From Candidatus Parcubacteria bacterium (GTDB lineage: Bacteria > Patescibacteriota > Minisyncoccia > Phycocordibacterales > Zambryskibacteraceae): a stretch of DNA of 64,000 bases. Made by a program: the position numbers and the translations under genes. The notes beneath the pieces were generated by a model, which did no database searches, was not told where the DNA came from, and saw nothing but the letters and a program-made list of their open reading frames with translations. Where the stretch lies: assembly GCA_019661865.1 (NCBI GenBank), contig JAIFWJ010000001.1, forward strand, positions 110,809-174,808. Reading direction: 5' to 3'. Below are positions 24,979 through 62,390 of this stretch, piece by piece (the stretch's first letter is position 1; every line of letters starts with the position of its first letter).

Positions 24979-25194
24979 CTATAGGCGCTTCACTATTCTG
25001 GCCTTCCCTCCGTAGGGCTCGAGCTCGAGTTGTACTCTATCTCCCACCAGAACTCTTATGCGGTGGAGTCTCATCTTACCAGAAAGGTACGACAAAAGCT
25101 CACCCTCTTCATTGTCGAGTCTTACTTTGAACATAATATTAGGTAGCGCTTCAGTAACTACCCCGGTGCGCTCCAGGTCTTTATTCTGTGGCAT
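24979..25194 (-). CDS. infA: translation initiation factor IF-1
   Basis: 71 aa. S1-like OB fold (…GKMRLHRIRVLVGDRV…). Confidence 0.9.
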   Translation of the reverse strand: MPQNKDLERTGVVTEALPNIMFKVRLDNEEGELLSYLSGKMRLHRIRVLVGDRVQLELEPYGGKARIVKRL

Positions 25195-26596: not shown

Positions 26597-26648
26597 TTGA
26601 TAATTTTACTAGACTTTTCCCTTAAGGCAATGTGGAAACTGGGTCTAG

Positions 26649-27832: not shown

Positions 27833-28315
27833 CTAACTATTGGTTGAGTTAAGTATATACTTCGGGACAATTCCAAGAGCCATGTACTCTTCTTGGAGTT
27901 CTTTGGGCAAGATGAAGAAATTCCTCACTACCTTTCTACAGTTCTTACTTCCACAGTTACATTTCATCTTCCAAATATCATCTTTACCAATTATGGTTGA
28001 GTAATCCATGACCAGTTCTTGGCCAATTTGAATTGGTGTAATTGCAAACAGCTCTAAATTACTCCCCGTCTTCCTTACTCCACAGTTTGGACTGCATGAA
28101 TGATTCAAGAAGTCTCCTATTTCTCCTTCGGGACTTAAGTACATTTCTGGGCCAAATCTAAAAGCATTATCTCCAATTTTTCCACCAATTTTAAATAACT
28201 TAGACCAGTGGTAGACCTTACCTTTAATTATAAAAAGCTTTTGTTTCGACCTAAATTCTCGTAAAGCAAAAATGCCTCTACCACTCCTGGCATCTCTTAC
28301 CTCTAAGCCCCTCAT
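27833..28315 (-). CDS. SET-domain protein (putative lysine methyltransferase)
   Basis: NHSCSPNC, ELVMDY and post-SET Cys cluster CNCGSKNC. 4-nt overlap (ATGA) with the alaS stop. Confidence 0.8.
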   Translation of the reverse strand: MRGLEVRDARSGRGIFALREFRSKQKLFIIKGKVYHWSKLFKIGGKIGDNAFRFGPEMYLSPEGEIGDFLNHSCSPNCGVRKTGSNLELFAITPIQIGQELVMDYSTIIGKDDIWKMKCNCGSKNCRKVVRNFFILPKELQEEYMALGIVPKYILNSTNS

Positions 28316-29934
28316 TCCAAGACTGCTTTAATGCGTCTCACTCCAGCTGACACGGCTTCTTCTTTCTGAATTTTAAATTTCCCAAGCTCGCTTGTATTAG
28401 ATACATGTGGACCACCGCAGAATTCCTTCGAATAAGCATGTTCCATGGAGTCTCCTATATAGTAGACACTGATCTCATCACCATACTTGTCGCCGAAGAA
28501 GTGCAGGGCACCTGTCTTCTCCGCCTCTGCCTTAGGTAGTATTACTCTATTTACTGGCAATGCTTCACTTATTTTCTCGTTTACAATTTCTTCTACTCTT
28601 TTCTTCTCCTCATCTGTCATCTTACGAGGGAAGGCGAAGTCGAAGCGCAGTCTCTCTGGAGTAATATTACTCCCCTTCTGACTCACATCATGCCCCAACA
28701 CATCGCGTAGAGCCTGATGGAGCAAATGTGTAACCGTGTGATACTGAACTTCCTTATCCGAGTGCCCGGCAAGACCACCTTTGAACTTGGCCTCCATGCC
28801 TCTGCGAGACATTTCTTGATGTTTTTTAAATCTTTCTTCGAAATCTTTTTCGTTAATCTCGATCCCCTTTTCTTTAGCAAGTTCCTTGGTGAGCTCAAGA
28901 GGGAATCCGTAAGAAGTGAAAAGTACAAAAGGGTCGCGACCCTTCTCAAACTCTTTAAGTCCCGCGTCCAGTGTCTCCTTAAATTTATTTGTCTCTGTTT
29001 CAAATACAGACCAGACTTCGTTTAAATTAAATTCATAAAAATCTTTATAACTTAAGTGATTTACCACTGCTTCTACAACCGGCTTCAAATCCCTTTGGTA
29101 CACAAATGCGCGTCTTATGAGTCGTCTTAGAACATATCCTCGTTCAGAATTTGACGGTCTGACTCCGTCAGAAATCATAAATACTGCACTTCGTACATGG
29201 TCAGCCACTATTCTAGATTTAGCTACGCTTAAAATTGAGACGAATAAATCTGTATCGAAAACTGTCTGTACTTCTTGTGAGACCATGGCGAGCCTTTCAA
29301 GCCCCATGCCAGTATCTATGCCTTTTATATCAAGTGGACGGAGAGTCTTGTCAGCGCTCTGATAAAATTCGTTGAAGACAATGTTCCAGATCTCGATACC
29401 GTCCACATATATTTCTGTCGTGGGACCACAAGGTCCCTCAGTACCTGTTGGTCCCCAGAAGTTATCTGCACGACCGAAAGCTCGAACACGAATACTTGGG
29501 TCAATAGATTTCCAAATTCTCTCAGACTCTTCATCCTTAGGCACTCCTTCTTCTCCCTCAAATATTGTGACGTAGTCAATCTTAAGACCCATTACTTCTG
29601 TGACGAACTCGTGTGCGTACTCTATAGCCTCCTTCTTCCAATATCCGCCGAAGCTGAAGTTACCGAGCATTTCAAAAAAAGTTAAGTGTCTCTCGTCTCC
29701 TACTTCTTCTATGTCAGAAGTTCGAACTGACTTCTGCACAGATACAGTGTTCTTAGAACCGAAATCTGACATAGGATCCTTCACTCCTAAGTAGTACGGC
29801 TTGAACTGCTGCATGCCGGCCGTGGTGAAGAGTACTGACGGGTCGTCGGTGACAAGCGGAGACGAAGGCACAACCTTGTGTCCCTTACCCTCGAAAAATT
29901 CTAAAAATTTCTGTCGTATTTCTCGTGATTCCAT
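28312..29934 (-). CDS. alaS: alanyl-tRNA synthetase, short form lacking C-Ala domain
   Basis: N-terminal catalytic domain (…FTTAGMQQFKPYY…). Editing-domain HxxxH (HLLHQALRDVLGH) and CGGPHV motifs. Ends after the editing domain at 540 aa. Confidence 0.85.
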   Translation of the reverse strand: MESREIRQKFLEFFEGKGHKVVPSSPLVTDDPSVLFTTAGMQQFKPYYLGVKDPMSDFGSKNTVSVQKSVRTSDIEEVGDERHLTFFEMLGNFSFGGYWKKEAIEYAHEFVTEVMGLKIDYVTIFEGEEGVPKDEESERIWKSIDPSIRVRAFGRADNFWGPTGTEGPCGPTTEIYVDGIEIWNIVFNEFYQSADKTLRPLDIKGIDTGMGLERLAMVSQEVQTVFDTDLFVSILSVAKSRIVADHVRSAVFMISDGVRPSNSERGYVLRRLIRRAFVYQRDLKPVVEAVVNHLSYKDFYEFNLNEVWSVFETETNKFKETLDAGLKEFEKGRDPFVLFTSYGFPLELTKELAKEKGIEINEKDFEERFKKHQEMSRRGMEAKFKGGLAGHSDKEVQYHTVTHLLHQALRDVLGHDVSQKGSNITPERLRFDFAFPRKMTDEEKKRVEEIVNEKISEALPVNRVILPKAEAEKTGALHFFGDKYGDEISVYYIGDSMEHAYSKEFCGGPHVSNTSELGKFKIQKEEAVSAGVRRIKAVLE

Positions 29935-30355: not shown

Positions 30356-30946
30356 CTATACCAATGTTTTTAAAATTTTGAAATCCTCTTTCAGAAGCTC
30401 CCGAGTACTTCCGTTATAAAGTGCCACAGCTGGGTGGTAGAGGGGAACGACCTTCACACTTTGTCCTTCTACTTCTGTATCGAAAACTGTTCCATGTAGC
30501 TTACTTATAGGTCCAAGTTCGAAGTCGAGTCCGTATCTATTCATAATGTACTGCATGGAGAAGCGACCAAGAGTAGCTATGACCTTCGGCTTTATAATAC
30601 CAATCTGTCTGTCTAAATAAGGTGCGTACTCTGCTATCTCGTCTGGTTGTGGGTCTCTATTCTTGGGCGGCCTGTCCTTCACAATATTAGTTATATACAC
30701 ATCCTCACGCTTGATTCCCACTCCCTCTAGTAACTCATTTAAAAATTGTCCTGCACGGCCCACGAAGGGTCTCCCGGTCTTAGCTTCATTCTCTCCTGGT
30801 GCCTCACCGATAAATATTATTTCTGCATCATGCGACCCTTCTCCAAGTACTGGAAAGTACTTGCCCTCTCGCCTCATATCTGCAAGTCTCCCCTTCATCG
30901 CCACCACTTCATCCTTAATCTTTCTAAGTTCATCAGTCTTAGACAT
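30356..30946 (-). CDS. uracil-DNA glycosylase, family 4
   Basis: GEAPGENEAKTGRPFVGRAGQFL matches the family-4 UDG motif GEAPGxxExxxGxPFVGxAGxLL. Confidence 0.85.
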   Translation of the reverse strand: MSKTDELRKIKDEVVAMKGRLADMRREGKYFPVLGEGSHDAEIIFIGEAPGENEAKTGRPFVGRAGQFLNELLEGVGIKREDVYITNIVKDRPPKNRDPQPDEIAEYAPYLDRQIGIIKPKVIATLGRFSMQYIMNRYGLDFELGPISKLHGTVFDTEVEGQSVKVVPLYHPAVALYNGSTRELLKEDFKILKTLV

Positions 30947-30969
30947 AGACCAATTCTATCAAAATGATG

Positions 30970-31686
30970 CTAGAACGGGAGCGTTTCAGTCTCTGGCACA
31001 CTTTCAAATATCATGCGCTTATATACGGCTCGGACAGTCTCTACGTCTCGTTTGCAGTAATTACAAATATCTTCTAACTTCCCCGCTTTGAAAAATTCAT
31101 TTACCTGGCTACCATCTATCCCTTCCTTTGGTGTCGGTATGCCGAGAGCAAGTGCAATGTGCTCGATGCTTTTATTGTTCCACTTGTCTACCCAGTGTGA
31201 CCATTCCCACATGGTGTCGTAGACTGGACAACTTGTGTACCTGGCAAAGTCTAGAAACTTAACACCCGGTGGAAGCCTAAACTTACTTTCTCCCGGTTCT
31301 ATGGTGATCTTCCATGTGGGCTTCACTCCTAATATAACTGAGCGTTGCATGATGAAAGGAAGATCGAAGTCGCGGATGTTATGTCCCACAAGTAAGTCTG
31401 CCTTCGCTGCAATGTCCCAGAACTGTATTAGCATTTTTCTCTCGTTCTCAGGCCCTGAGATAGCTTCTACCCTATCATCATTCATGGCGAATCCGATGCA
31501 ACAGATTCTTCCGTAGGTACCGTCCGTCCCCGTGCCATCCCAGAATTCTTCAAATGTCTGCGCTTCCACAGCTGGATCTCTCTTCTGTTTCTTTGTCACT
31601 TTCTTCTCGTGTAAAAGACGGAGCGTCTTTTCATGTACCCCATCTGCTGGGAGTGTTTCTATATCAAAATAAAGTTTATTGACCAT
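30970..31686 (-). CDS. DEDD-family 3'-5' exonuclease (RNase H-like fold)
   Basis: Exo I-like YFDIETLP, Exo II-like VGHNIRDFDLPF, and Exo III-like …YCKRDVE. Confidence 0.6.
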   Translation of the reverse strand: MVNKLYFDIETLPADGVHEKTLRLLHEKKVTKKQKRDPAVEAQTFEEFWDGTGTDGTYGRICCIGFAMNDDRVEAISGPENERKMLIQFWDIAAKADLLVGHNIRDFDLPFIMQRSVILGVKPTWKITIEPGESKFRLPPGVKFLDFARYTSCPVYDTMWEWSHWVDKWNNKSIEHIALALGIPTPKEGIDGSQVNEFFKAGKLEDICNYCKRDVETVRAVYKRMIFESVPETETLPF

Positions 31687-32116: not shown

Positions 32117-32950
32117 TTAAAGTTCACTGATTTCTTGTAAAACTTTCTCCACTCTATCTTTACCCAGAACTGTTTCAAGTATTACTGGATTTTCTACAAG
32201 TGAGGAACAGAGGACTGTACCAGAAGTTAAGATTTCTTTCTTCTCTACTGATGTAAGAGAACTCAAGCATGTGAGTGGATGCAGATGCTCTTCCACAATC
32301 ATATCCTGGAGATTACCCTTCTCCGGATAGTTCCATCCTATCATGGTTAAGTTCATGCAGACTCCGTAATGTATAGCGGTTGAGGAAAACTTGGTGTTAG
32401 TGATGAGCCAACTTTCATTTACCGGTCTGTTCATACCACCGTAGTTATAAACATTTTCTTTAAGGTCATCGAAGCGAGCCTTCACATATAGTGCTACCTT
32501 GAGGTCCGACTTGCTGCCGAGCTCATTGTGGAACTTGGCTTCAGCCATGAGGAGCTTCTTATCGTTCCATGCCACCACATCAATCTCATGAGGCACGCAG
32601 CCGCCAAGTACATTTTGCCGAGTTAAGGTCTGGTAGCCCTTGGCCTTGAGAATTTCTGCTACGAAGTCCTCGAATGGGAAACCAGATGGACCAAGGTCTA
32701 GGAGAGCGCGGCGGATAGAATATCTGTAAGCAACTGGCTTCTCATGCTCATGGAGGAGCCTAAAGGCCTTGGAGTATATCTCCGCCGTAGGCATGTCATT
32801 GTGGAGACTCTCTAAAATGTTCTGCATCACTGATTCCACCGACTCTGTATCAGCACCAGAACGCATGAGTGATGAGCGCAACTTCTCCGGCTCGAAGACC
32901 TCTCTTTTACCTGTAGCCTTGATAACAGTAAACTGCACTCCGTTTGTCAT
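32117..32950 (-). CDS. ATP-cone domain fused to PD-(D/E)xK (Mrr-like restriction endonuclease fold) nuclease
   Basis: N-terminal VIKATGKREVFEPEKLRSSL (ATP-cone). Central …PHEIDVVAWNDKKLLMAEAKF (D…E-x-K nuclease core). Confidence 0.55.
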   Translation of the reverse strand: MTNGVQFTVIKATGKREVFEPEKLRSSLMRSGADTESVESVMQNILESLHNDMPTAEIYSKAFRLLHEHEKPVAYRYSIRRALLDLGPSGFPFEDFVAEILKAKGYQTLTRQNVLGGCVPHEIDVVAWNDKKLLMAEAKFHNELGSKSDLKVALYVKARFDDLKENVYNYGGMNRPVNESWLITNTKFSSTAIHYGVCMNLTMIGWNYPEKGNLQDMIVEEHLHPLTCLSSLTSVEKKEILTSGTVLCSSLVENPVILETVLGKDRVEKVLQEISEL

Positions 32951-33007
32951 CAGACTAGTATAACAGTGTTCATTTATAAAAATATCCCCAACAAACTGTT
33001 GAGGACA

Positions 33008-33961
33008 TTACTTGGCATCTAACTTCCGACGGATATCGAGAACAGCTGTTTCTAGCTTGTTATCAGAGCCAATTTTTTCTGCCTTGGCAATGATCTCGTT
33101 CACGGCACTGGGCCCTTCAATCTGGCCGAGAGCACGGAGTTCGAGCCGTTGTTTGACTAGCTCAAGTGGCACAAGCCTTTCGAAGACTGGTCGTAGAGCT
33201 TCAAGAAGAATACTTCGCGACTCTTCTCTGACCAGATCAACTCGACCTTGGAGCTTACGTAAGCGAGTCTCGTATTCTATGTCGGAAAAATGAGCTTCTG
33301 CCTTCGGGATGAATGTTTCAACCTCCCGAAAGAATCTCAAAGCAGCCTGCTGATCACCTTCAAGCTCAGCGTAGAGCTTCTTATACTTCTCTACCTCAAG
33401 TTGTGCCTCATCTGCTAAACTACGGGCACCTGGGTCATACGTCTGATCAAAACGCTCCTGCCAGTATCTTAGAATCGTGCGTGCTTCATTGAGCTCCAGC
33501 TTGATCTTGTTCATCTGGCGCACCACTTGTGACCTTTCACCTTCGACACTGTCCTTGGCCGCCATAATTACGCTCTTCTGTTTTTCAAGAATGAGCTTTA
33601 GGATAGCGGCTGTGTCAGGTTCTGGTACTGGGTCCTGAACAAAGTTTTGAATTTTCTTCCTGCGGATTTTCATCAAAAGAAAGGCACGCAACGTCCAAGT
33701 TGTAAGGATTCCGGCAACAGTTCCTACTAAAGCCAGCAATAAACTGTTTTTACTGTAATCAACCCCTGGCAAAAGTAGAAAGGTAATACCTATTCCTAGC
33801 AAGCATGATGCAAGAAGGGCTCTAATTGAGTCACCTAACGCTTGAACAAAGCTGAGTGGTTGAGGTTGTATTCTGACAAAGACAGACTTGGGAGTCACGT
33901 CTTTGATTACTTCTTGAATCCGTTTATCGAGTTCTCGATCATCAAGCTCAAATAACCACAT
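33008..33961 (-). CDS. hypothetical membrane protein with two TM helices and long coiled-coil
   Basis: Hydrophobic hairpin around residues 50-100, then a K/E-rich helical region. No motif recognised. Confidence 0.45.
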   Translation of the reverse strand: MWLFELDDRELDKRIQEVIKDVTPKSVFVRIQPQPLSFVQALGDSIRALLASCLLGIGITFLLLPGVDYSKNSLLLALVGTVAGILTTWTLRAFLLMKIRRKKIQNFVQDPVPEPDTAAILKLILEKQKSVIMAAKDSVEGERSQVVRQMNKIKLELNEARTILRYWQERFDQTYDPGARSLADEAQLEVEKYKKLYAELEGDQQAALRFFREVETFIPKAEAHFSDIEYETRLRKLQGRVDLVREESRSILLEALRPVFERLVPLELVKQRLELRALGQIEGPSAVNEIIAKAEKIGSDNKLETAVLDIRRKLDAK

Positions 33962-36081: not shown

Positions 36082-37323
36082 TTATATAGGTAAGTTTGAA
36101 GGTGCTTCAGCTTTCTTCGAAGGTATGCGAGAGAGCGTAGGGGTAGCTGCCACCTCGCCTGGGAAGTGGTAGATAGTTGCGAGCTCTTCTACAGACATGA
36201 CGAAAGGTTTACTCTTATAATTTTTAAATGGTCGTTCGAAAAAGGCTCTTCGTTTATAAGCTTCCAAGTATTTAAGCTCTGACTCCTTCCTATCTCTTCC
36301 GAATGGATCTTGCCATGGATATTCAGAAGCGATATTTCCTTGTGGTCTGAAGCCATTTAAGCTTGGGGATCCGAACTGGCTAATGCTTCCAATCAGCCCT
36401 CCAATGTTTGTCGGATTAAATGCTTCCTTCTCAGCGAAGTAAGTAGCCCGGATCATAGTATCAAATGCTGTCTTACCTGCATTTCTTTCTATAGCCACAA
36501 TGACATCTCTTTGTCCTTGACTCAGATGTTTGGTTGAGTCTAAGGTTTTATCCTCGGCAGGTTTAAGAAGTCCTTTCTTTAAAATTTCTTTTATCTCTTT
36601 CTCTACACCTCCTTTCCAGTCCGGCTTTACGAATATTCTGCCGAGTTTGAGCCCCTCCTTAGCATGAGCACGGATAAGTATCTGAATCCAAACTTGCTCC
36701 CCTCTCTTTAAAGAACCCAGAAATTCTAATACAGAAACTATAGGATCAATTTTAAACTCCTCATCAGGATTCTTATCGAGGCCATAATCAATGTAAGTCT
36801 TTATGGGATATGCTTCTGCTTTAGTGGGAATGAAGTTACTAAACCAGCCGAAGGTCAGTTTTTCTGGATTACGCTCTACTCCGAGTGAGTAGTCAGCCAC
36901 TTCATGTACTTCTACATTGGGAAACTGTGCATAGAGCTGGGCCTCAGTCCTGTTTCTCAATCCCTTGTGACACCACAAGAAGAAATGGACATTTCCATCT
37001 ATAGATACAAGTTCGAGCGAGTACCACACACGTACCTGACCCTTGATATAGACGTTTATAAGACTGCCCGCTGCTGAGTTATATAAGTTACTTAAGAAAA
37101 GTTCCATGGCTGCCGGAGACTTGGTCATCTCACGCGGCAGGCGGATCTCCAACAAGACTGAACCTTGAGTCTTGATCCATTCTCTGCGCTTCCAAGTAAG
37201 CCAAACGTCGAAGGCAATCATAACGAAGAGCATTGGAATCCAGAAAGGACTTGAAACCTTGGCCGCATGCAGAACTGTATGTACTGCTCCAGTATTAAAT
37301 GCAGCCAGAAACGCTTCTTTCAT
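36082..37323 (-). CDS. hypothetical membrane-anchored protein
   Basis: 413 aa with an N-terminal TM. No family motif recognised. Confidence 0.45.
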   Translation of the reverse strand: MKEAFLAAFNTGAVHTVLHAAKVSSPFWIPMLFVMIAFDVWLTWKRREWIKTQGSVLLEIRLPREMTKSPAAMELFLSNLYNSAAGSLINVYIKGQVRVWYSLELVSIDGNVHFFLWCHKGLRNRTEAQLYAQFPNVEVHEVADYSLGVERNPEKLTFGWFSNFIPTKAEAYPIKTYIDYGLDKNPDEEFKIDPIVSVLEFLGSLKRGEQVWIQILIRAHAKEGLKLGRIFVKPDWKGGVEKEIKEILKKGLLKPAEDKTLDSTKHLSQGQRDVIVAIERNAGKTAFDTMIRATYFAEKEAFNPTNIGGLIGSISQFGSPSLNGFRPQGNIASEYPWQDPFGRDRKESELKYLEAYKRRAFFERPFKNYKSKPFVMSVEELATIYHFPGEVAATPTLSRIPSKKAEAPSNLPI

Positions 37324-37343
37324 AATTTAATTGTACAGCCTAT

Positions 37344-37886
37344 TTACAGAAACTTGAAGGAGTCGCTCATCTGACTGTCTGAGTCACCAAACGTAGTACC
37401 TTCGCCAAGGTCCCACTCTGCAAGTCTATGTGTAGTAGGAGAATATTTCAAAACTGTACCAGAGCCTACTTCACAAGCTGGACTAGATGCAATCTCCACA
37501 TCGAAGGTGCCCTCCTGAGCTCCGGGCTTCAAGCTGTCGAAACTACAATCCTTGCCAAACTGAGTTTTTATAAATGCGTCTATGCCACCGGTATATACAT
37601 TATCTACTTCTTGAATATTCCAAGATTTGGAAGGGTTATTAGCTGGAGTGATGGTTAAGACGTTCCAGTTTTTACTGACAGTGGCATCCTTTGGAACTTG
37701 AATGCTGAAACCAAGCATGTCGTTACTGTAGGTAGTCCAGTCAAGAGAGTTGAGGACATTCGCAGAATTGGATTTAGAGGTTGGACGAACTCTAGTCATG
37801 TAAAAAGCTCCACCGAGTATCACCACCAGAGCCGCTACCCCGGCTAGGAATTTATAATCTCTAAGATAGTTTAAATATTTTTGCAT
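37344..37886 (-). CDS. hypothetical secreted or membrane-anchored protein
   Basis: N-terminal TM or signal anchor, then a 150-aa S/T/N-rich domain. Confidence 0.45.
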   Translation of the reverse strand: MQKYLNYLRDYKFLAGVAALVVILGGAFYMTRVRPTSKSNSANVLNSLDWTTYSNDMLGFSIQVPKDATVSKNWNVLTITPANNPSKSWNIQEVDNVYTGGIDAFIKTQFGKDCSFDSLKPGAQEGTFDVEIASSPACEVGSGTVLKYSPTTHRLAEWDLGEGTTFGDSDSQMSDSFKFL

Positions 37887-39011: not shown

Positions 39012-41831
39012 TTATAACACAATATTGACAAGCCTGCCAGGGACTACCACTATGCGCTGTGGAGTGGCTCCGTTAAGCCATTTTTTCACTTCTGGGATAT
39101 CTAATGCAAGGGTCTTGACCTGACTTTCGTCTGTGCTCTTATCCAGAACGATAGTTGCTCGAGTTTTACCATTTACTTGCACAACGATGGTTACATCCTT
39201 CCCCTCGAGCTTCTTTTCATCGAATTCTGGCCAACTCTCAGTATGAATTGAATTTTTCTCCCCGATGCTCGACCAGAGTTCCTCTGTCACATGTGGTGCA
39301 AAGGTCGCTAACAACTTAAGAATAACCTTATACTCCATGGAGGATATAAAACTTTGTTTCTCTACACTATTAACATGAATCATAAGCGTAGAAATTGCCG
39401 TATTGAAGTTCATGGTCTCAATGTCATCCGAGACTTTTTTAATCGTTTGGTTTAGATGAATAATACTCTCCTCCGAGATCCGAACCTTGTCCGTCGAAAC
39501 CTTATCCTTCAATTTCCAAACTCTCTCAATAAACCTATATGGTCCCACAAGTGCATCCTCACTCCAGGCTATAGCTTGATCGAAGGGTCCCATAAACATT
39601 TCATACAGGCGCAATGTATCTGCACCGAAGCGCTTCACTATAGTGTCCGGATTTATGACATTCCCTTTGGACTTACTCATCTTCTCTCCCCCTTCGGCGA
39701 GTATTAGCCCATGAGACGTGCGCTTCTTGTACGGCTCATCTGTGGGTACGAGCTTAAGATCATATAAAAACTTATTCCAGAATCTGGAGTAGAGGAGATG
39801 GAGAGTAGTATGTTCCATGCCACCGTTGTACCAGTCCACAGGCATCCAATACTTGAGAGCCTTTTTCGATGCGAACTCCTTATCATTCTCTGGATCTGCA
39901 TATCTTAAGAAGTACCAAGAAGAGCCCGCCCAGTTCGGCATAACATCTGTCTCTCGCTTGGCGGGACTCTCACACTTGGGACACTTCACATTTACCCAAG
40001 TTTCTACATTAGCAAGTGGTGACTCGCCATCTGGACCTGGTTCGTACTTCTCCACTACTGGAAGCTCCACTGGTAAGTCGCTCTCTGGTACTGGTACAAC
40101 ACCACACTTCTCACAGAGGATGACGGGTATGGGCTCGCCCCAATATCTCTGGCGTGAGAAGACCCAATCGCGGAGTTTAAACTTAGTGACGAGTGTGCCA
40201 CCTGCGAATTTAATAATGTCTTTATAAACTTCTTTAGAAGTTTTACCATCGAACTTTCCAGAATTAGTAAGTATGCCAGTACCAGTGTATGGTTTATTCC
40301 GGATAAATTTCTGAAACAAAAGCGCATGATTCTCATCCACCACCTTCTGTTCTGCTTCATCTTTCGATAACCAGTGAACAGTAAAAAGATTCTTCTCATT
40401 CTCCTCCAACTTCTGATCATCCTTCTCTTCGTCTATAAGCTTAAAGTGGACTCCTGTGACTTCAATATTACGAGCAACATTTTTAGAAAAAGCGAAGTAA
40501 TGATGGTGACTCTTACCAGCAACCTGAACCACTTTCAAATTTTTATATCCTGTCTCTTCTTTAATCTCGCGAATTGCAGCTTCGACTGGATCTTCATCAC
40601 CTTCTAATCCTCCACCGATAAACAGAATTCCTCCATACTTCGGAGTCCAATCAAGTGCAAGAATCTTTCCGGTTTTCGGATTCTCGACTATTGCCACAAT
40701 GCTGTTTCTTAACTGCTCATCAGGTAGCACTTCTCCAGTAACAGGCTCAATAACCTCTCGTATAGGCAGTTTAAATTTAGTGGCAAATTCAAAATCACGC
40801 TCATCGTGTGCAGGTACGGCCATGATGGCACCTGTTCCGTAATTCGGCAGTACATAATCTGCAATCCATACAGGAATCTTTTCCTTAGTGGCAGGATTTA
40901 TGGCTTCGAAACCTTGGATCTCTACACCAGTCTTCTCCTTACCTTCTGACACGCGGTCAATCTCGGCCTTGTTCTTGGTTTTACTTATATAATCTTCAAC
41001 CTCACCATAATTCTTTATGGCAAGGTTACTAAGGATGAGTGGGTGTTCTGGTGCCAGTACAAGGTATGTGGCGCCGAAGATAGTATCTGGTCTGGTGGTG
41101 AAAATTTTCACCGACTTCCCGGTAGTGAGGTCAAATTCAATTTCCGCACCTTCGCTTCTCCCAATCCAGTTCTTCTGGCTTAACTTAATGCGTTCAGAAT
41201 AATCCAATCCTTCGAGATCTTTCTCCAGTCTGTCGGCATACTTAGTTATGGCAAGCATCCATTGCTCCTTCTCGCGCTTCTCCACAGTAGTACCGCAGCG
41301 CTCACACTTACCGTTTATCACTTCTTCGTTAGCAAGACCAATCTTGTCTTTCGGGCACCAATTTATAAATTGTTTATCCTTATATGCTAGACCTTTTTCT
41401 AGAAATTTAAGAAATATCCACTGAGTCCACTTGTAGTACTTCGGATCTGTAGTATTAATCTCCCGCGACCAGTCGAAGGAAAGTCCGAGGGACTTGAACT
41501 GCTCACGGAAGTTATCGGTATTCTCCTTAGTTACTACTCTCGGATCCTTACCAGTCTTAAGAGCGTAGTTTTCTGTTGGGAGTCCGAAGGCGTCCCAGCC
41601 TATAGGAAACATTACATTGAAACCCTGCATCCTACGTTTCCTAGAGATAATATCCATGGCCGTGTAGCCGCGCACATGCCCAGTATGAAGACCATCACCG
41701 GATGGATACGGGAATTCCATAAGTGAGTAGTACTTTTCTCTCTTATCTCCTGTTTTGGATTCGTAGAGTTTTTCTTCCTCCCACTTTTTCTGCCATCTGG
41801 ACTCTATTTCTTGATAGTTATACTCCGACAT
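39012..41831 (-). CDS. leuS: leucyl-tRNA synthetase with inserted Nudix-like domain
   Basis: HTGHVRGY (HIGH), KMSKSKGN, and CP1 editing region (TTRPDTIFGATY…GTGAIMAVPAHDERDFEFA). Residues ~377-505 (nt 40317..40703) contain a canonical Nudix box GGGLEGDEDPVEAAIREIKEETGY. Confidence 0.9.
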   Translation of the reverse strand: MSEYNYQEIESRWQKKWEEEKLYESKTGDKREKYYSLMEFPYPSGDGLHTGHVRGYTAMDIISRKRRMQGFNVMFPIGWDAFGLPTENYALKTGKDPRVVTKENTDNFREQFKSLGLSFDWSREINTTDPKYYKWTQWIFLKFLEKGLAYKDKQFINWCPKDKIGLANEEVINGKCERCGTTVEKREKEQWMLAITKYADRLEKDLEGLDYSERIKLSQKNWIGRSEGAEIEFDLTTGKSVKIFTTRPDTIFGATYLVLAPEHPLILSNLAIKNYGEVEDYISKTKNKAEIDRVSEGKEKTGVEIQGFEAINPATKEKIPVWIADYVLPNYGTGAIMAVPAHDERDFEFATKFKLPIREVIEPVTGEVLPDEQLRNSIVAIVENPKTGKILALDWTPKYGGILFIGGGLEGDEDPVEAAIREIKEETGYKNLKVVQVAGKSHHHYFAFSKNVARNIEVTGVHFKLIDEEKDDQKLEENEKNLFTVHWLSKDEAEQKVVDENHALLFQKFIRNKPYTGTGILTNSGKFDGKTSKEVYKDIIKFAGGTLVTKFKLRDWVFSRQRYWGEPIPVILCEKCGVVPVPESDLPVELPVVEKYEPGPDGESPLANVETWVNVKCPKCESPAKRETDVMPNWAGSSWYFLRYADPENDKEFASKKALKYWMPVDWYNGGMEHTTLHLLYSRFWNKFLYDLKLVPTDEPYKKRTSHGLILAEGGEKMSKSKGNVINPDTIVKRFGADTLRLYEMFMGPFDQAIAWSEDALVGPYRFIERVWKLKDKVSTDKVRISEESIIHLNQTIKKVSDDIETMNFNTAISTLMIHVNSVEKQSFISSMEYKVILKLLATFAPHVTEELWSSIGEKNSIHTESWPEFDEKKLEGKDVTIVVQVNGKTRATIVLDKSTDESQVKTLALDIPEVKKWLNGATPQRIVVVPGRLVNIVL

Positions 41832-57341: not shown

Positions 57342-58121
57342 ATGTCCACGTCTCAATGGGTACTCCTGTGCCTGGCATCAGTATTTTTAGGAATTTTTAT
57401 TACCTACAGACTGATGCGAAAGAGATACTGGTTCAAGAAGTCGGTCGAAGAAGTTCTGGAAAGTAGAGATCTCGAATGGTTGGTAGACCACACTGAAAGA
57501 GTACTTCAGCCATGGAGTGTGAGAGACCCGTTCCTACTGCGTATCGCTCGCGCTCACATTTTCTCAATCTGTAAGACAAGCGCTGAGTGCAAGTTCGTTT
57601 TAAAAAATCTGTCTCTACCAGATAGCGGCCGCGACTCGGATATCGTCAAGGACCTCAAACGTAAGTGGCAAGATTTTTCATCTCGAGATTTCGCCAGACC
57701 TCAGAACTTCTCAGGCTTAGTAAGAGCCTGCGAGAACTGTGGGGAAGATCATCCTGAGCGAAGTCCAAACCTCATGAGGCTTGTGCTCTTAGCCGATAAC
57801 TCAGACGAGTGTATGATCGCTGCCCGTCTGGCTCTAAGGGAAAGTGAGGTGAGAATCGAAGCACTTCTCAAGGCTTTGGCGCTCGAGGCTACCTCTCACG
57901 AAAGGAGAGAGATGCTCGACAAGTATATGCGGAGAGTGCCATACGACTCTAAGCTCTGGCGACGCTTCATGAGAACAGAATTCAATGAAGACCGGTTAAT
58001 AGAGGCCATGAAGATGGTCCCCGGAGACTCGTTGGCACGTCGTCTGGCCAAGTCGAGACTAAAGCATCTCAGCCATGTACCACGACAGCGATCACCTAAA
58101 CCAGAGATTGCTATCGTTTAG
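57342..58121 (+). CDS. hypothetical membrane-anchored protein
   Basis: GGAGAAG SD. N-terminal TM (WVLLCLASVFLGIFITY). Followed by terminator GCCTGGG-CACAGA-CCCAGGC + TTTTTATTT at 58122..58150. Confidence 0.45.
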   Translation: MSTSQWVLLCLASVFLGIFITYRLMRKRYWFKKSVEEVLESRDLEWLVDHTERVLQPWSVRDPFLLRIARAHIFSICKTSAECKFVLKNLSLPDSGRDSDIVKDLKRKWQDFSSRDFARPQNFSGLVRACENCGEDHPERSPNLMRLVLLADNSDECMIAARLALRESEVRIEALLKALALEATSHERREMLDKYMRRVPYDSKLWRRFMRTEFNEDRLIEAMKMVPGDSLARRLAKSRLKHLSHVPRQRSPKPEIAIV

Positions 58122-58151: not shown

Positions 58152-59165
58152 TTATCTTTTAGAAATTATCGACTTTTTGTACATGTCGAGGTGTTCCAGT
58201 GCTATACCCGTACCCTTGGCCACACAGAAGTATGCATCCTTAGCAAGCTCAGCCTTCACTCCAGTTCTACGGAAGACAAGTTCAGGAAGATTACGAAGTT
58301 GTGATGATCCTCCAGTCATGATAATCCCTCTGTCGATAATATCTGACGAAAGCTCTGGTGGAGTTTCTTGCAAAACATCTTTTATAGCTTTCACCATTTC
58401 GCGCAGTTCTCGAGCGATAGCCTTCACCACTTCATTTGTCTTTATATCTATAGTACGTGGAAGACCGACTACCGAATCTCTTCCTTTCACAGATAAAGAA
58501 AGTTCTTCCTCCAGGGGTATTGCAGAACCAATTTCAATCTTTATGTCCTCGGCAGTCTTATCTCCAATGGTAAGGTTGTAAGTCTTCTTCATGTAGTCAA
58601 CTATGGCCGCATCAATTTTATTACCCGCTACTTTCACCGAGGTTGAGGCCACAATACCGCCTAGAGAGATCACCGCCACATCTATAGTTCCACCACCAAT
58701 GTCTACTATCATATTGCCTGCCGCTTCATGTATGGGCACCCCAGCTCCAATAGCCGCAAGTATGGGCTCCTTCACCACATAAGCATTCTTCGCACCAGCC
58801 TTGGTAGCAGCTTCCATCACTGCTCTACGCTCTGTAGAGGTCACTCCTGCTGGTACCGAGATGAGCACATCTGGTTTAAAAAGATTCCAACGACCCAGTG
58901 ACTTATTTATATAATGCTTGAGCATGGCCTCAGTCACTCGGTAGTCTGCGATGACTCCATCTTTCATGGGCCTGTAAGCTACGATGTCATCTGGAGTTCG
59001 TCCAACCATGGTCTTAGCCTCTGCTCCTATGGCTAGGATTTTATTATTTTCTGCAATGGCAACAACTGAGGGTTCATTCAGAATAATTCCTTTCCCTGGC
59101 ACGAAGACAAGAATATTTGTAGTACCAAGATCTATACCGAGCTTCTTAGCGAGTGGCATGGGCAA
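58152..59165 (-). CDS. mreB: rod shape-determining protein MreB
   Basis: LGIDLGTTNILV. Actin-fold motifs (…VDIGGGTIDVAVISLGG…). Confidence 0.93.
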   Translation of the reverse strand: MPMPLAKKLGIDLGTTNILVFVPGKGIILNEPSVVAIAENNKILAIGAEAKTMVGRTPDDIVAYRPMKDGVIADYRVTEAMLKHYINKSLGRWNLFKPDVLISVPAGVTSTERRAVMEAATKAGAKNAYVVKEPILAAIGAGVPIHEAAGNMIVDIGGGTIDVAVISLGGIVASTSVKVAGNKIDAAIVDYMKKTYNLTIGDKTAEDIKIEIGSAIPLEEELSLSVKGRDSVVGLPRTIDIKTNEVVKAIARELREMVKAIKDVLQETPPELSSDIIDRGIIMTGGSSQLRNLPELVFRRTGVKAELAKDAYFCVAKGTGIALEHLDMYKKSIISKR

Positions 59166-59177
59166 TATGATACTCCT

Positions 59178-61094
59178 GTGTCATATAATGTGGCAATGCG
59201 AGTTGTAGAAGTAGTGCCATTTGCCCGGGGTATAACACGGGATAAACTTTCTTACTTTACTAAGGAAGATTTACCGTTAGGCACTCTAGTGCGCATACCT
59301 ATCAGGAAAAGCTCGTATTTAGGCCTTATCATAGGATCTAGAGAGGTCGAGGAAGCTAAACTTGAGCTTAGGTCAGCTGACTTTACCCTAAGAAAGCTTG
59401 AAGAAATAGAACGAGTAGGCAGTGTTCCTGAAAGTCTAGTAAAAGCTTCTCTCAGGACTGGTGTCTATTTCGCCGCCACCACGGGGTCGGTTTTGGGCGC
59501 AATTCTACCGAAGATCTTTCTCGATATTCCCTCTCTTATGGGAGAAGGCCCAGAGATTCAAAAAGTGGGCAAGAAGGAAGCTCTACTCATCCAACTTCCG
59601 ACCAATGAACGGATGCAAGAGTATAACTCCATAGTGAGATCAAGCTTCGCCCGCAAGGAATCAGTACTCTTGATAGTTCCCACTCGCGAGGATGCGCTCA
59701 GACTTGAATTCCTACTTTCTAAAGGTATAGAGAAATTTACCTTCACCCTCTCAGGTAAGAGCGTCAATATTCAAAAAGAAATTCTGGCTAAAGCTCGTGA
59801 TGAAAAGCATCCAATCTTATTTATAACTACACCTGGATTTCTTTCTTTCACCAGGCGAGATTTATGCACCATCATAATCGAAAGAGAAAATTCTAGATCT
59901 TATAAGACTCTCAAGCGTCCATATCTAAATTATAAAATTTTCATCCAGTATCTCGCAGAAGAAACTGGAGCCACGCTTATACTCGGGGACACGGTACTCT
60001 CTCTCGAGTCGCTTAAAAAGGCCAAGGAAGATGTCTATAGTGAGTACACACCTTTGAGTTGGAATGTTAAAAGTAACTCTCAGATTAGGGTAATGAACAT
60101 GCGTGAGTCTCGTACCGAACGTGAGAGTCCGAGGGACTTCGAAATATTTTCTAAAAAAGCTACTAACCTTATCTCTAAAGCCCTAGAGGAAAAAAAGAAA
60201 ATTTTCCTCTTCGGTGCACGTAAAGGACTTGCTCACACCACTGTCTGTGGTCACTGTGGTGCACTCCTACTTTGTAAAAATTGTGGAGCTCCTGTGGTCC
60301 TACATAAGTTGAAGGACTCTAAAGAGCCCACTCAAGATCGGATTTATATCTGTCATCATTGCGGTGCAAGGCGCGATGCACTAACTACATGTGACAAATG
60401 TGGTAGTTGGAAGTTAATACCACTTGGTATCGGTACCGACAGGATTATAGAAGAACTTAAGTTGCAGTTTCCTAAAGCACCTATATTTATTTTGGATAAA
60501 GAACATACACCCACAGGAGCTAAGGCGAGTAAGGTTGCCAAGGAGTTCGCTTCTACTCGCGGTGGTATCCTGGTTGGCACAGAACTTGCTCTTCTCTATC
60601 TTGAGAAAGTTCCTTACTCCATAGTTGTCTCTCTGGACTCTCTCTTCTCCATACCGGACTTTACTATTAACGAACGCATCTTTTATTTATTGACTCATCT
60701 TAAGGAAGTTACAGAAGTCGATATGCTCATTCAGACACGTAACCGGGGAGAAGTTATACTCGACTACGCTACAGAGGGCACTATTTTAGAATTTTATAGG
60801 TTCGAGATGAAGGAGCGTGAGGAACTGTATTACCCACCTCTCTCACTCTTTATAAAAGTCTCTATTGAAGATGAAAGATCTTCTCTTAAAACTCATGCCT
60901 CTCTTCTGGAAAATCTTTTCAGACCATGGAACCCTGAGTTTATAGAAGAACGAGGCTTGGGAAGCCATAGAAGTATCCTGTCCATGATCATGCGCGTCGG
61001 TAGAAGTAACTGGCCTGTTAAGGAACTCTCCGAGAAACTTCTTTTGCTTCCGCCATCATTTTCCATTAAAGTGGATCCTGAGAGTATTCTATAA
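59178..61094 (+). CDS. priA: primosomal protein N' (PriA) homolog with degenerate Walker A/B motifs
   Basis: N-terminal 3'-DNA-binding domain (MRVVEVVPFARGITRDKLSYFTKEDLPLGTLVRIPI). Cys-rich Zn-binding region (CGHCGALLLCKNCGAP…CHHCGARR…CDKCGS). Helicase C-terminal region. The Walker A position reads LLIQLPTNERMQEY and Walker B reads IIIERENSRSYK. Confidence 0.8.
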   Translation: MSYNVAMRVVEVVPFARGITRDKLSYFTKEDLPLGTLVRIPIRKSSYLGLIIGSREVEEAKLELRSADFTLRKLEEIERVGSVPESLVKASLRTGVYFAATTGSVLGAILPKIFLDIPSLMGEGPEIQKVGKKEALLIQLPTNERMQEYNSIVRSSFARKESVLLIVPTREDALRLEFLLSKGIEKFTFTLSGKSVNIQKEILAKARDEKHPILFITTPGFLSFTRRDLCTIIIERENSRSYKTLKRPYLNYKIFIQYLAEETGATLILGDTVLSLESLKKAKEDVYSEYTPLSWNVKSNSQIRVMNMRESRTERESPRDFEIFSKKATNLISKALEEKKKIFLFGARKGLAHTTVCGHCGALLLCKNCGAPVVLHKLKDSKEPTQDRIYICHHCGARRDALTTCDKCGSWKLIPLGIGTDRIIEELKLQFPKAPIFILDKEHTPTGAKASKVAKEFASTRGGILVGTELALLYLEKVPYSIVVSLDSLFSIPDFTINERIFYLLTHLKEVTEVDMLIQTRNRGEVILDYATEGTILEFYRFEMKEREELYYPPLSLFIKVSIEDERSSLKTHASLLENLFRPWNPEFIEERGLGSHRSILSMIMRVGRSNWPVKELSEKLLLLPPSFSIKVDPESIL

Positions 61095-61095
61095 A

Positions 61096-61650
61096 ATGCC
61101 CAACCCAGAAATAGTCCAGAAAGACGCGGCAGTCTTACGTGAGATGGCACACCCTGTCGAGGTTAAAGAAATAACTTCTAAGAAAATTCAGAGTGTCCTC
61201 TCACGGATGAAGAAGGCCCTGAAGTCCCAAGATGATGGGGTAGCTATTGCTGCACCACAGATAAGCGAGAGTTTACGCATTTTTATAGTTAGCGGTAGAA
61301 CTCTTCTTCTTATGCGGAAGGACGAGTCCACTCCGAAAGAATTGGAAAATGCTCCGGAAGATTTAGTATTTATAAATCCCACCATAACTAAACTCTCCAA
61401 GAAGAAACTTATGATGGAGGAAGGATGCCTCTCTATCCGTTGGCTGTACGGACATGTTGAGAGAAGTGAGAAGGCCACCATTACAGCCTATGATGAGAAT
61501 GGTAAGAAGTTCCAGAAAGGAGCTTCGGGCCTTATGGCTCAGATCTTCCAACATGAGGTAGATCACTTAAATGGTATTCTATTTATAGATAAGGCAGAAG
61601 GCTTACACGAACTTCCTCCAGAAGAAACCCATAATAAGATTAGTGAATAA
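61096..61650 (+). CDS. def: peptide deformylase
   Basis: EGCLS and QHEVDHLNG motifs. Confidence 0.9.
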   Translation: MPNPEIVQKDAAVLREMAHPVEVKEITSKKIQSVLSRMKKALKSQDDGVAIAAPQISESLRIFIVSGRTLLLMRKDESTPKELENAPEDLVFINPTITKLSKKKLMMEEGCLSIRWLYGHVERSEKATITAYDENGKKFQKGASGLMAQIFQHEVDHLNGILFIDKAEGLHELPPEETHNKISE

Positions 61651-61652
61651 CA

Positions 61653-62390
61653 GTGTCGATCAAATTTGTATATTTCGGTTCCTCACAATTCTCTAAATAT
61701 GTTTTAGAGGAGTTAGAGAAGGAAGGACTTACCCCTGTTCTTAATATTACTTCAGCTCAGGAACCATTAGATATAAAGAAGCTGCAAGAAGCAAAAGCAG
61801 ATGTATTTATCGTGGCATCATTCGGGAAAATTTTACCCAAAGAAGTAATTTATATGCCGCCTTATAAGACTCTCAATGTCCATCCGTCACGACTGCCCAG
61901 ACTTCGAGGTCCTTCCCCCATACAATCTTCCATAATTAGTGAACCAGAACCGCATTTAACCATTATGAGAATGGACGAAGAGATGGATACAGGTCCTGTG
62001 GTAGTCACAACCACTCAATTCATTACCCCCTGGCCAGATTATTATTCGATAATTGAAGAGAAGCTTGGACATAGTGGAGGACAAGTCCTAGCTCAGATTC
62101 TTCCCCTATGGATAGATGGAAAGATAGATGAAGTTCCCCAAGATAATTCAAAAGCCACTTATACAAAGAAAATAAAAAAAGAGGATGCGGATATTACAAA
62201 CGACTCGCCAGAGCTAGCATTACGAAAGATCATGGCCTATGAGACTTGGCCCAGAGCACGTAAGGGAGATTTGATAATAACCAAAGCACATTTAGAGAGT
62301 GGAGAACTCGTTTTAGACAAAGTCATCCCTCCCGGTAAGAAAGAGATGAGTTACAAGGACTACGAAAACGGTTTGAAAGGAAAAAGATAA
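61653..62390 (+). CDS. fmt: methionyl-tRNA formyltransferase, short form
   Basis: N-terminal formyltransferase domain with HPSRLPRLRGPSPIQ. 245 aa. Immediately downstream of def. Confidence 0.85.
   Translation: MSIKFVYFGSSQFSKYVLEELEKEGLTPVLNITSAQEPLDIKKLQEAKADVFIVASFGKILPKEVIYMPPYKTLNVHPSRLPRLRGPSPIQSSIISEPEPHLTIMRMDEEMDTGPVVVTTTQFITPWPDYYSIIEEKLGHSGGQVLAQILPLWIDGKIDEVPQDNSKATYTKKIKKEDADITNDSPELALRKIMAYETWPRARKGDLIITKAHLESGELVLDKVIPPGKKEMSYKDYENGLKGKR

Follow-up and report, generated by a model that had tools for sequence, protein, structure and literature searches.

The helicase motifs of PriA are usually described as conserved except in Deinococcus-Thermus (PMC5778457, PMC4504706), where the lysine of GKT is replaced by arginine (PMC4504706). 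The PriA of D. radiodurans shows neither ATPase nor helicase activity, yet it binds DnaB as well as ssDNA and forks (Lopper, Boone & Morrow 2015, PMC4504706). Work on the priA300 allele of E. coli (K230R), which carries one engineered substitution in a helicase that is otherwise intact, showed that PriA-PriB primosome assembly and restart need neither ATPase nor helicase activity; the defects of this allele concern the PriA-PriC pathway and Mu transposition (PMC5778457). [quoted passage not shown] In contrast to them, our protein lacks motifs I, II, III, and VI and the winged-helix (WH) domain, and it is 638 instead of 732 aa long.

The gene lies in a 64-kb stretch of DNA from a Candidatus Parcubacteria bacterium, the whole of which is referred to as the window, and the following genes make up the locus:
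58152..59165, minus strand: mreB (PF06723, E=1.5e-131), divergent, with its start 12-30 bp from the priA start
59178..61094, plus strand: priA, gene of the candidate pseudohelicase, with a GTG start at 59178 and 638 aa in the ORF list
61096..61650, plus strand: def, peptide deformylase (PF01327, E=9e-42), 1 nt after the priA stop
61653..62390, plus strand: fmt, methionyl-tRNA formyltransferase in a short 245-aa form (PF00551, E=3e-22), after a 2-nt gap behind def

The 100%-identical protein at NCBI starts at M7 (ATG 59196), which gives 632 aa, and is annotated as 'hypothetical protein KW790_01050 [Candidatus Parcubacteria bacterium]'. This name is probably due to the score against the curated equivalog model TIGR00595, which at 177.7 bits (E=3.4e-52) stays under the cut-off of 230.35. 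A TATAAT was observed at 59183-59188, 7 nt ahead of ATG 59196 and with no -35 partner, hinting at a leaderless transcript, and a promoter and terminator scan of the divergent mreB/priA junction returned generic consensus matches only. The sequence-only reading had placed the gene in an operon with def and fmt, and the gaps of 1 and 2 nt agree with this. Among 80 related loci, def was found downstream of priA in 77, fmt in 73, and mreB upstream in 72, and the priA-def-fmt arrangement was recorded in 77/80.

The assignment to PriA was supported at several levels. Identity to the canonical E. coli and Klebsiella proteins amounts to 18-23%, and the match to PriA in the PDB has E=4e-22 with the single sequence and E=7e-48 with a family profile. 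When the AF2 model (pLDDT 82.5) was searched with Foldseek, the fork-bound E. coli PriA 8fak_H came out as the best match (E=3e-36, TM 0.76); ranks 1-9 were all PriA chains (E from 3e-36 to 9e-26), with Mfd, DEAD-box, and RecQ helicases coming next. According to the model, two RecA-like SF2 helicase lobes are predicted to be present as a fold. The domains were delimited as follows:
59196..59540, plus strand: 3'-DNA-binding domain, aa 7-121 (PF17764, residue conservation, secondary structure of the model)
59541..59579, plus strand: short variable linker, aa 122-134 (13 aa), replacing the winged-helix domain (conservation, offset)
59580..60077, plus strand: RecA-like lobe 1, aa 135-300, catalytically degenerate and highly conserved (conservation, PriA fold match)
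60153..60827, plus strand: RecA-like lobe 2, aa 326-550, with the Cys-rich insert (motifs IV and V, conservation of 2.2-2.4 bits/column)
60237..60413, plus strand: Cys-rich region, aa 354-412, with two predicted zinc sites (weak PF18319 match, cysteine pattern)
60828..61094, plus strand: C-terminal domain, aa 551-638, ending in a conserved IKVDPESIL (alignment with the E. coli domain)

The N-terminal 3'-DNA-binding domain claimed from the sequence alone could be identified, although the protein's own PF17764 match (aa 24-111, E=0.0022) remains below the gathering score. Its identification is based on the precomputed PF17764 carried by most relatives, on the superposition of the model on E. coli PriA, and on Y26 and K73, which are conserved in at least 90% of sequences and fall at or near the positions of Tyr18 and Lys61 of E. 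coli (Y26 was taken as the equivalent of Tyr18; PMC5778457). In the model, the domain consists of beta strands at 8-56 and then helices at 85-121. Likewise, the zinc-binding insert was recovered as described (CxxC…CxxC…CHxC…CxxC), with the pairs C357xxC360, C366xxC369, C392HHC395, and C405xxC408 matching the fourfold CXXC pattern of E. coli PriA (PMC5778457); these eight predicted zinc-ligand cysteines are invariant among the aligned relatives, and all of them are kept in 80/80 named genomes. Lobe 2 keeps motif IV (IFLFGARKGL) and motif V (ILVGTE), in which L344, F345, R348, G350, G467, and T468 are invariant, E. coli PriA included. The C-terminal domain aligns with E. coli PriA up to the terminal VDVDP, and some relatives carry a precomputed PF18074 in this region.

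Regarding the catalytic core, four motifs are degenerate or deleted:
59592..59624, plus strand: degenerate motif I/Walker A, aa 139-149, QLPTNERMQEY, without glycines (E. coli and profile-to-PDB alignments)
59871..59894, plus strand: degenerate motif II/Walker B, aa 232-239, IIIERENS versus VIDEEHD (alignment)
59982..59996, plus strand: degenerate motif III, aa 269-273, LGDTV versus LGSAT, i.e., SAT changed to DTV (E. coli alignment)
60690..60722, plus strand: site of the deleted motif VI, aa 505-515, with the arginine finger absent (alignments)

Both the alignment with E. coli PriA and the profile-to-PDB alignment with Klebsiella PriA put LLIQLPTNERMQEY (residues 136-149) opposite Walker A, and direct alignment with the K-12 protein shows GVTGSGKT turned into QLPTNERM, with R145 at the position of the catalytic lysine (E. 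coli K230) at an offset of 85 residues. Similarly, IIIERENSR (residues 232-240) stands opposite DEEH, which has become E235-R236-E237-N238. The two motif losses first noticed in the sequence are thus correctly located, and the comparison added others that had escaped attention, namely those of motif III, motif VI, four residues of motif Ia, and the WH domain. In motif VI, E. coli QVAGRAGRAGKQGEV is opposed by HL-----KEVTEVDM, where a 5-residue deletion takes out GRAGR. The WH domain, which in E. coli PriA spans residues 109-181 or about 73 aa (PMC5778457), is absent, as indicated by the 85-residue offset and by the linker in its place, the least conserved segment of the protein (0.78 bits/column); the second-best Foldseek match was the WH-deletion construct 6dcr. 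The aromatic-rich loop (ARL) is partly conserved, with Y242 and K/R243 kept and the Trp lost, and it was left out of the evidence because the role of this loop is to link ATPase activity with DNA binding, not to supply affinity (PMC5175346). The UvrB encoded in the same window retains GVTGSGKT, which makes the loss specific to PriA. Combining PriA ancestry, degenerate Walker A and B motifs, and the change of lysine to arginine, the protein would, as judged from its sequence, qualify as a pseudohelicase.

When compared to Deinococcus-Thermus PriA, the protein shares the poor Walker A and B motifs, the arginine in place of the catalytic lysine, and the lineage-wide conservation of this state, and the arginine recalls priA300 as well. 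As far as the published description of Deinococcus-Thermus PriA goes, however, our protein differs in the replacement of the whole glycine-rich loop (Q-x-x-x-E-R), in its altered motif III and shortened motif Ia, in the deletion of motif VI, and in the lack of a WH domain; the hosts are also different, Patescibacteria in our case and Deinococcota for D. radiodurans. Weak matches were also obtained with the actinobacterial NCBIfam group PRK14873 ('primosome assembly protein PriA', E=2.7e-16 to 2e-5), a different and distantly related subgroup of PriA. Mycobacterial PriA is flagged in UniProt as lacking detectable helicase domains and would be another natural helicase-less PriA. No direct statement on motif loss in mycobacterial PriA was found in the literature.

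The loss turned out to be a trait of the lineage and not a peculiarity of one genome. About 460 Patescibacteria relatives were checked, and it is common to 386 database relatives, with identities down to 31%, and to 78/78 named Patescibacteria genomes. The pattern [AG]xxxxGK[ST] was found at the Walker A position in 0/386 relatives and a P-loop in 0/78 named genomes, while GRxGR of motif VI was found in none of the 386 relatives and in 0/80 named genomes. The idea that intact motifs might simply be shifted was rejected: regular expressions for [AG]xxxxGK[ST] and DE.[HD] gave scattered chance matches in 268 relatives, none of them at Walker A. A search for transitional forms, run outward from P0221 (32% identical, DEEH kept), returned 118 new matches, all of them motif-less, and every one of the top 150 clusters at 50% identity fell within the family. 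The replacements are themselves conserved among 268 relatives, in motif I (Q139 in 95%, R145 in 98%, Y149 in 96%; the replacement state also in 78/78 named genomes), in Walker B (E235 in 84%, R/K236 in 77%, E237 in 95%, N/S238 in 85%), and in motif III (G270 in 82%, D271 in 95%). Conservation reaches 2.2-2.4 bits/column in the lobes, compared with 2.1 in the 3'BD and about 0.8 in the linker, and lobe 1 (2.23 bits/column) contains 20 positions conserved at 90% or more. Purifying selection is strong on the whole protein, the dead lobes included.

These data bear on two other explanations. The sequence comes from a metagenome-assembled genome and is labelled a hypothetical protein, as would be expected if it were a decaying pseudogene or the product of a frameshift or assembly artefact, but the 638-aa ORF is uninterrupted, 70 positions of the family are conserved at 90% or more, and the same architecture and substitutions recur, at identities down to 31%, across 386 independent sequences and in 78 named genomes that stem from many studies. 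This family-wide conservation rules out such an origin, to which we assign practically no probability. The second explanation is that of a cryptic enzyme that binds or hydrolyzes a nucleotide or another phosphorylated ligand at a non-canonical site composed of R145, E237, D271, R348, and R521. The replacement residues are indeed near-invariant and not drifting, Arg, Glu, and Asp are among them at the cleft between the lobes, and about five relatives have DEEH in the Walker B position or close to it. Nevertheless, we consider this very improbable, since the glycine-rich loop is absent and the first helix of the model starts at residue 142, about 3 residues before R145 and inside the former P-loop, an Arg or Lys takes the place of the catalytic Glu of DExH in 77% of relatives, motif VI has been deleted along with its arginine finger, and the K-to-R change alone abolishes the ATPase of E. 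coli PriA (PMC4504706, PMC5778457).

A second priA copy was sought in the window by scanning all six-frame ORFs with the family HMM, and only this gene was found (next-best E=0.87). In the 80 related loci, covering 1.3 Mb of flanks, scans with E. coli PriA and the family HMM detected no extra priA; the sole secondary matches (E of about 1e-4) were minus-strand ORFs of about 2 kb at the position of the upstream uvrB. These results are relevant to a third explanation, in which the protein is a neofunctionalized, PriA-derived DNA- or zinc-binding protein that has left replication restart for another role, such as that of a regulator, a structural nucleoid protein, or a repair factor, with restart carried out by another factor or a second PriA. 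The disappearance of the catalytic motifs and the WH domain together with the appearance of new invariant residues at the old active site would fit this view, pseudoenzymes that gain new roles show a similar pattern, and the curated NCBI model of PriA rejects the protein. We nevertheless regard it as distinctly unlikely, because the non-catalytic modules (3'BD, CRR, CTD, motifs IV and V) are all kept, in order and conserved, the ancestral position ahead of def and fmt is kept in 77/80 loci, no second priA was found in the window or in 1.3 Mb of related flanks, and helicase-dead PriA supports restart elsewhere (PMC4504706, PMC5778457).

Taken together, the protein is probably a PriA pseudohelicase, which identifies forks that have been abandoned and brings the replicative helicase to them without itself unwinding DNA. 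It would be a true descendant of PriA whose site for ATP binding and hydrolysis was taken apart and then became fixed in a different form that is conserved, and ATP hydrolysis, translocation, and unwinding should all be impossible for it. [quoted passage not shown] Most likely, Q139, E144, R145, Y149, E237, and D271 form a putative nucleotide-independent network that fixes the lobes in one conformation. PriA would then offer a docking site for DnaB, recruited either directly or together with SSB and a factor of the DciA type, leading to replication restart. This loader step is argued from analogy, as DnaB, DciA, and SSB were not found in the window, and D. radiodurans PriA is most likely the model for how the protein works. 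E. coli has PriB, PriC, DnaT, and DnaC, whereas none of these was seen in the window. Fork recognition may also differ from that in E. coli, because the WH domain, four motif Ia residues, and the ARL Trp are missing. The proposal of an ATPase-dead, fork-binding, structure-specific loader, already made from the sequence, matches the conclusion drawn experimentally for D. radiodurans PriA (PMC4504706) and priA300 (PMC5778457), and this precedent makes it less novel than that proposal implied.

A more specific version of this pseudohelicase reading can be offered tentatively, and we find it rather doubtful in its entirety: Paceibacteria (Parcubacteria), which make up a very large share of the CPR, would depend for the initiation of restart on nothing but a single WH-less, fully ATPase-dead PriA, its former ATP site rebuilt into a conserved latch (Q139/E144/R145/Y149/E237/D271) that works without nucleotide, and the system would have arisen independently of the one in Deinococcus. 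If true, the latch would hold PriA permanently in a fork-bound, loader-competent conformation, and DnaB would be loaded directly, without PriB, DnaT, or DnaC, in a minimal restart system.

Searches of the literature for PriA of CPR, Patescibacteria, Saccharibacteria, or Parcubacteria retrieved nothing relevant. A PriA pseudohelicase is apparently undescribed for CPR bacteria; it is of a known kind and more radically degenerate than its precedents. In terms of annotation, the labels 'hypothetical protein' (NCBI) and 'superfamily II helicase' (IMG) are both misleading. Among bacterial replication-restart proteins, none is as widely conserved as PriA, and a second, far larger, and very diverse lineage retains it under strong selection without a trace of the ATPase site. 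This strengthens the view that the conserved core task of PriA lies in recognizing forks and recruiting the helicase rather than in unwinding, and a naturally minimal PriA of 638 aa, without the WH domain and without a predicted ATPase, may help structural and mechanistic studies of how helicases are loaded.

The priA open reading frame, which the ORF listing places at 59178-61094 on the + strand in agreement with the sequence-only reading, opens with a GTG start and encodes 638 aa. The database entry identical to it (100%) derives from a 188.5-kb contig and is listed as 'hypothetical protein KW790_01050 [Candidatus Parcubacteria bacterium]'; at 632 aa, its length implies an NCBI start at M7 (ATG 59196). 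The NCBIfam model TIGR00595 (priA) matched residues 150-569 (E=3.4e-52, 177.7 bits), under its curated cut-off of 230.35 bits, which probably explains the 'hypothetical' label. When the PDB was searched by sequence, all matches were PriA chains (4nl4, 6dgd, 6dcr, 8fak, 9zbu), at E=4e-22 with the single query sequence and E=7e-48 with a 22-member family profile. The AlphaFold2 model, obtained from the 22-member family alignment, was confident (pLDDT 82.5, pTM 0.82), and the nine top-ranking PDB structures in a Foldseek search with it were all PriA, led by E. coli PriA bound to a replication fork (8fak_H, E=3e-36, TM 0.76) and followed by 6dcr, a winged-helix-deletion construct of PriA. Other SF2 helicases (Mfd, DbpA, RecQ) trailed PriA by more than 17 orders of magnitude. 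By sequence and predicted fold, the protein is PriA, as had been proposed, with the following organization.

Domain architecture of the protein encoded at 59178-61094 (+), numbered on the 638-aa form
aa 7-121, 3'-DNA-binding domain (3'BD)
aa 122-134, linker
aa 135-300, RecA-like lobe 1
aa 326-550, RecA-like lobe 2, with the Cys-rich region inserted
aa 354-412, Cys-rich region (CRR): C357xxC360, C366xxC369, C392HHC395, C405xxC408
aa 551-638, C-terminal domain (CTD)

The N-terminal domain and the Cys-rich insert recognized in the sequence-only reading were both located, the former with a sub-threshold Pfam match (E=0.0022), as was that of the PriA Cys-rich zinc ribbon (E=0.0083). The insert shares with E. 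coli PriA the fourfold CXXC pattern, which binds two zinc ions there (PMC5778457), and all eight cysteines were kept in 80/80 related loci. Regarding the 3'-end pocket, formed in E. coli by Asp17, Tyr18, Gly37, and Lys61, the invariant Y26 is taken from the alignment as the counterpart of Tyr18, and Lys61 is matched by a basic position (K/R72, along with the invariant K73), while the positions of Asp17 and Gly37 read as Ser/Thr and Arg. Past motif II, the aromatic-rich loop is retained only in part. No winged-helix domain (residues 109-181 in E. coli) is present: K230 aligns with R145 at an 85-residue offset, and the model has no fold separating lobe 1 from the helices of the 3'BD.

Direct alignment with E. 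coli K-12 PriA indicated that most helicase motifs are lost. Motif I changes from GVTGSGKT to QLPTNERM, with every glycine gone and R145 aligned with K230, the Walker A lysine; motif Ia from VPEIGLTPQ to VP----TRE; motif II from IDEEHDSSYK to IERENSRSYK, with Arg at the catalytic Glu position; motif III from LGSATPAL to LGDTVLSL; and motif VI from QVAGRAGRAGKQGEV to HL-----KEVTEVDM, a gap that deletes the arginine finger. Motifs IV (ILFLNRRGF in E. coli, IFLFGARKGL in the query) and V (ILIGTQ, ILVGTE) are kept, and L344, F345, R348, G350, G467, and T468 are invariant, E. coli PriA included. In the model, a strand at 135-139 is followed by a helix from residue 142, approximately three residues ahead of R145, so the phosphate-binding loop is predicted to be gone. 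Independent HMMER alignments to Klebsiella PriA matched this motif placement, bearing out the reported absence of Walker A and Walker B and ruling out intact motifs at a shifted position. UvrB in the window carries an ordinary GVTGSGKT, and the loss is therefore specific to PriA. With the glycine loop, the catalytic Glu, and the arginine finger all absent, a cryptic NTPase activity is very improbable. The protein descends from PriA but lacks its catalytic motifs and winged-helix domain and scores below the curated PriA threshold.

When relatives were considered, a word-indexed search with the query returned 575 homologs, the best 120 of which were full-length, 44-54% identical, and derived from Parcubacteria, Zambryskibacteria, Minisyncoccia, and Patescibacteria. 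A profile search run exhaustively over 1.84 billion cluster representatives gave top 150 matches from 150 separate 50%-identity clusters, each scoring more than 570 bits across its full length. Among the 268 sequences pooled from both searches, no P-loop occurs at the Walker A position (0/268); 95% have Q where the first P-loop Gly would stand, 98% have R in place of the Lys, and 96% retain Y149. The Walker B consensus is [E/D]-[R/K]-E-[N/S]-S and that of motif III G-D-[S/T], with DEEH at or near Walker B in approximately 5/268. The same signature was found in members just 31-34% identical to the query, and a search seeded with P0221, one of these divergent members, contributed a further 118 sequences, every one motif-less, some of them named 'primosomal protein N'' by NCBI. 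Relatives P0062, P0065, P0072, P0116, P0221, and P0255 carry DEEH or EEEH at or near Walker B and lack motifs I and VI; they may be relics of a decay in which motif II followed motif I.

According to a scan of GTDB species representatives, 173 genomes encode relatives, and 80 loci were retained, with Patescibacteria-type MAG labels save for generic 'bacterium' and one 'Nitrospira'. Q139, R145, and Y149 are present together in 78/78 complete genes, and neither a P-loop nor GRxGR was found in the retained loci. The loss, common to all relatives tested, is no defect peculiar to the source genome. Furthermore, 70 positions are at least 90% conserved (268 sequences), and the degenerate RecA lobes carry 2.2-2.4 bits per column, compared with 2.3 for the CRR, 2.1 for the 3'BD, 2.0 for the CTD, and 0.8 for the nearly free 13-residue linker between 3'BD and lobe 1. 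These levels rule out a decaying gene and imply that the dead core retains some role depending on its exact shape; conservation across relatives likewise excludes a frameshift or assembly artefact, and a pseudogene or artefact, refuted by the family-wide data, has practically no probability left. Separately, many TPA MAGs with a Parcubacteria-type priA (L006, L009, L012, L016, and others) bear the title 'uncultured Candidatus Saccharibacteria bacterium', and L037 is titled 'Nitrospira sp.'; these titles seem to reflect misassigned taxonomy or faulty binning and not a true presence in those groups, because the priA genes are 35-50% identical to the Parcubacteria query and lie in loci with its gene order.

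The reported adjacency to def and fmt was also found: def starts 1 nt past the priA stop and fmt 2 nt past def, and among the 80 related loci def (77/80), fmt (73/80), and hpf (69/80) lie downstream and a divergent mreB upstream (72/80). The priA-def-fmt order is known in other bacteria, e.g., Bacillus subtilis, and so marks an orthologous position, not a new functional link. Neofunctionalization of this PriA descendant away from restart is unlikely, as every non-catalytic PriA module and the ancestral locus are retained. As for a second priA copy, a check proposed in the sequence-only reading, none was detected in the window of 64 kb, where the next-best ORF had E=0.87, or in the flanking DNA of 80 related loci (1.3 Mb), where secondary matches to E. 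coli PriA were only ORFs of approximately 2 kb at the upstream uvrB position (E~1e-4). Nor does the 64-kb window contain DnaB, SSB, a helicase loader, or an additional helicase, its remaining genes being housekeeping ones (uvrC, uvrA, uvrB, tgt, ddl, aaRS, dnaK-dnaJ-grpE, rpoA, scpAB, and cell-wall genes).

Only 12-30 bp separate the divergent starts of mreB and priA (59159-59196). A perfect TATAAT at 59183-59188, 7 nt upstream of ATG 59196, hints at a leaderless priA-def-fmt transcript and supports the NCBI start, and the other strand carries TTGCCA-18-TATCAT, whose end at 59167 immediately precedes the mreB start; both are consensus matches only. The fmt gene (61653-62390, +) encodes only 245 aa, matching only the C-terminal two-thirds of the Formyl_trans_N profile, with no match to the formyltransferase C-terminal domain; a counterpart is present in 73/80 related loci. 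Between tgt and mreB lies a 259-aa ORF (57342-58121, +) without a Pfam match or a detectable counterpart in the 80 loci. Elsewhere, leucyl-tRNA synthetase (39012-41831, -; 939 aa) bears a NUDIX hydrolase domain (PF00293, E=9.5e-15, aa 375-505) directly after its editing domain (aa 220-367), an arrangement, by insertion or fusion, that is unusual among aaRSs. In the region 11437-15258 (-), GC falls to 0.34 at 12001-14000 versus approximately 0.44 elsewhere; this stretch encodes a histidine kinase of 7TM type, a ThiF-family protein, and an ORF whose N-terminal nitroreductase match is weak. It may represent an island, acquired or accessory, with a possible role in peptide modification. A 160-aa SET-domain protein (27833-28315, -; PF00856, E=1.3e-12) adjoins a truncated 540-aa alanyl-tRNA synthetase (28312-29934), and at 30356-31686 (-) a PolB-like 3'-5' exonuclease domain protein (PF10108, 238 aa) beside a uracil-DNA glycosylase family protein may form a small repair module. 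Sizeable ORFs without a Pfam match lie at 25181-27818, 32117-33961, 36082-37886, and 15834-17336 (all -).

A precedent exists in the Deinococcus-Thermus PriAs, in which the match to motifs I and II is poor and Arg replaces the GKT lysine (PMC4504706, Lopper et al. 2015). D. radiodurans PriA neither hydrolyzes ATP nor unwinds DNA, yet it binds ssDNA (Kd ~215 nM) and fork DNA (~109 nM) and interacts with DnaB, for which 'pseudohelicase' was coined (PMC4504706). In E. coli, K230R PriA is restart-proficient via PriA-PriB and not via PriA-PriC, according to a review of restart that also describes PriA helicase activity as conserved 'except in Deinococcus' (PMC5778457). Nothing relevant on PriA in CPR, Patescibacteria, Saccharibacteria, or Parcubacteria was found in the literature searched, which to that extent leaves the case in Parcubacteria undescribed. 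Although the concept of a helicase-dead PriA already exists, the loss is more extreme and the variant far more widespread here than in Deinococcus; its value to specialists lies in the breadth and completeness of the motif loss and in its use as a minimal PriA model. By analogy, the protein most likely works like the Deinococcus pseudohelicase, and the earlier interpretation of an ATPase-dead, fork-binding loader is supported. It would most likely recognize abandoned forks or D-loops via the 3'BD and a static helicase-core/CRR clamp, in which the near-invariant replacement residues at the catalytic motifs are predicted to tie the two lobes together, probably without nucleotide. DnaB would then be recruited, possibly with DciA and SSB, leaving the lagging-strand arm unremodelled, and a different enzyme would be required at forks that offer no single-stranded landing site.
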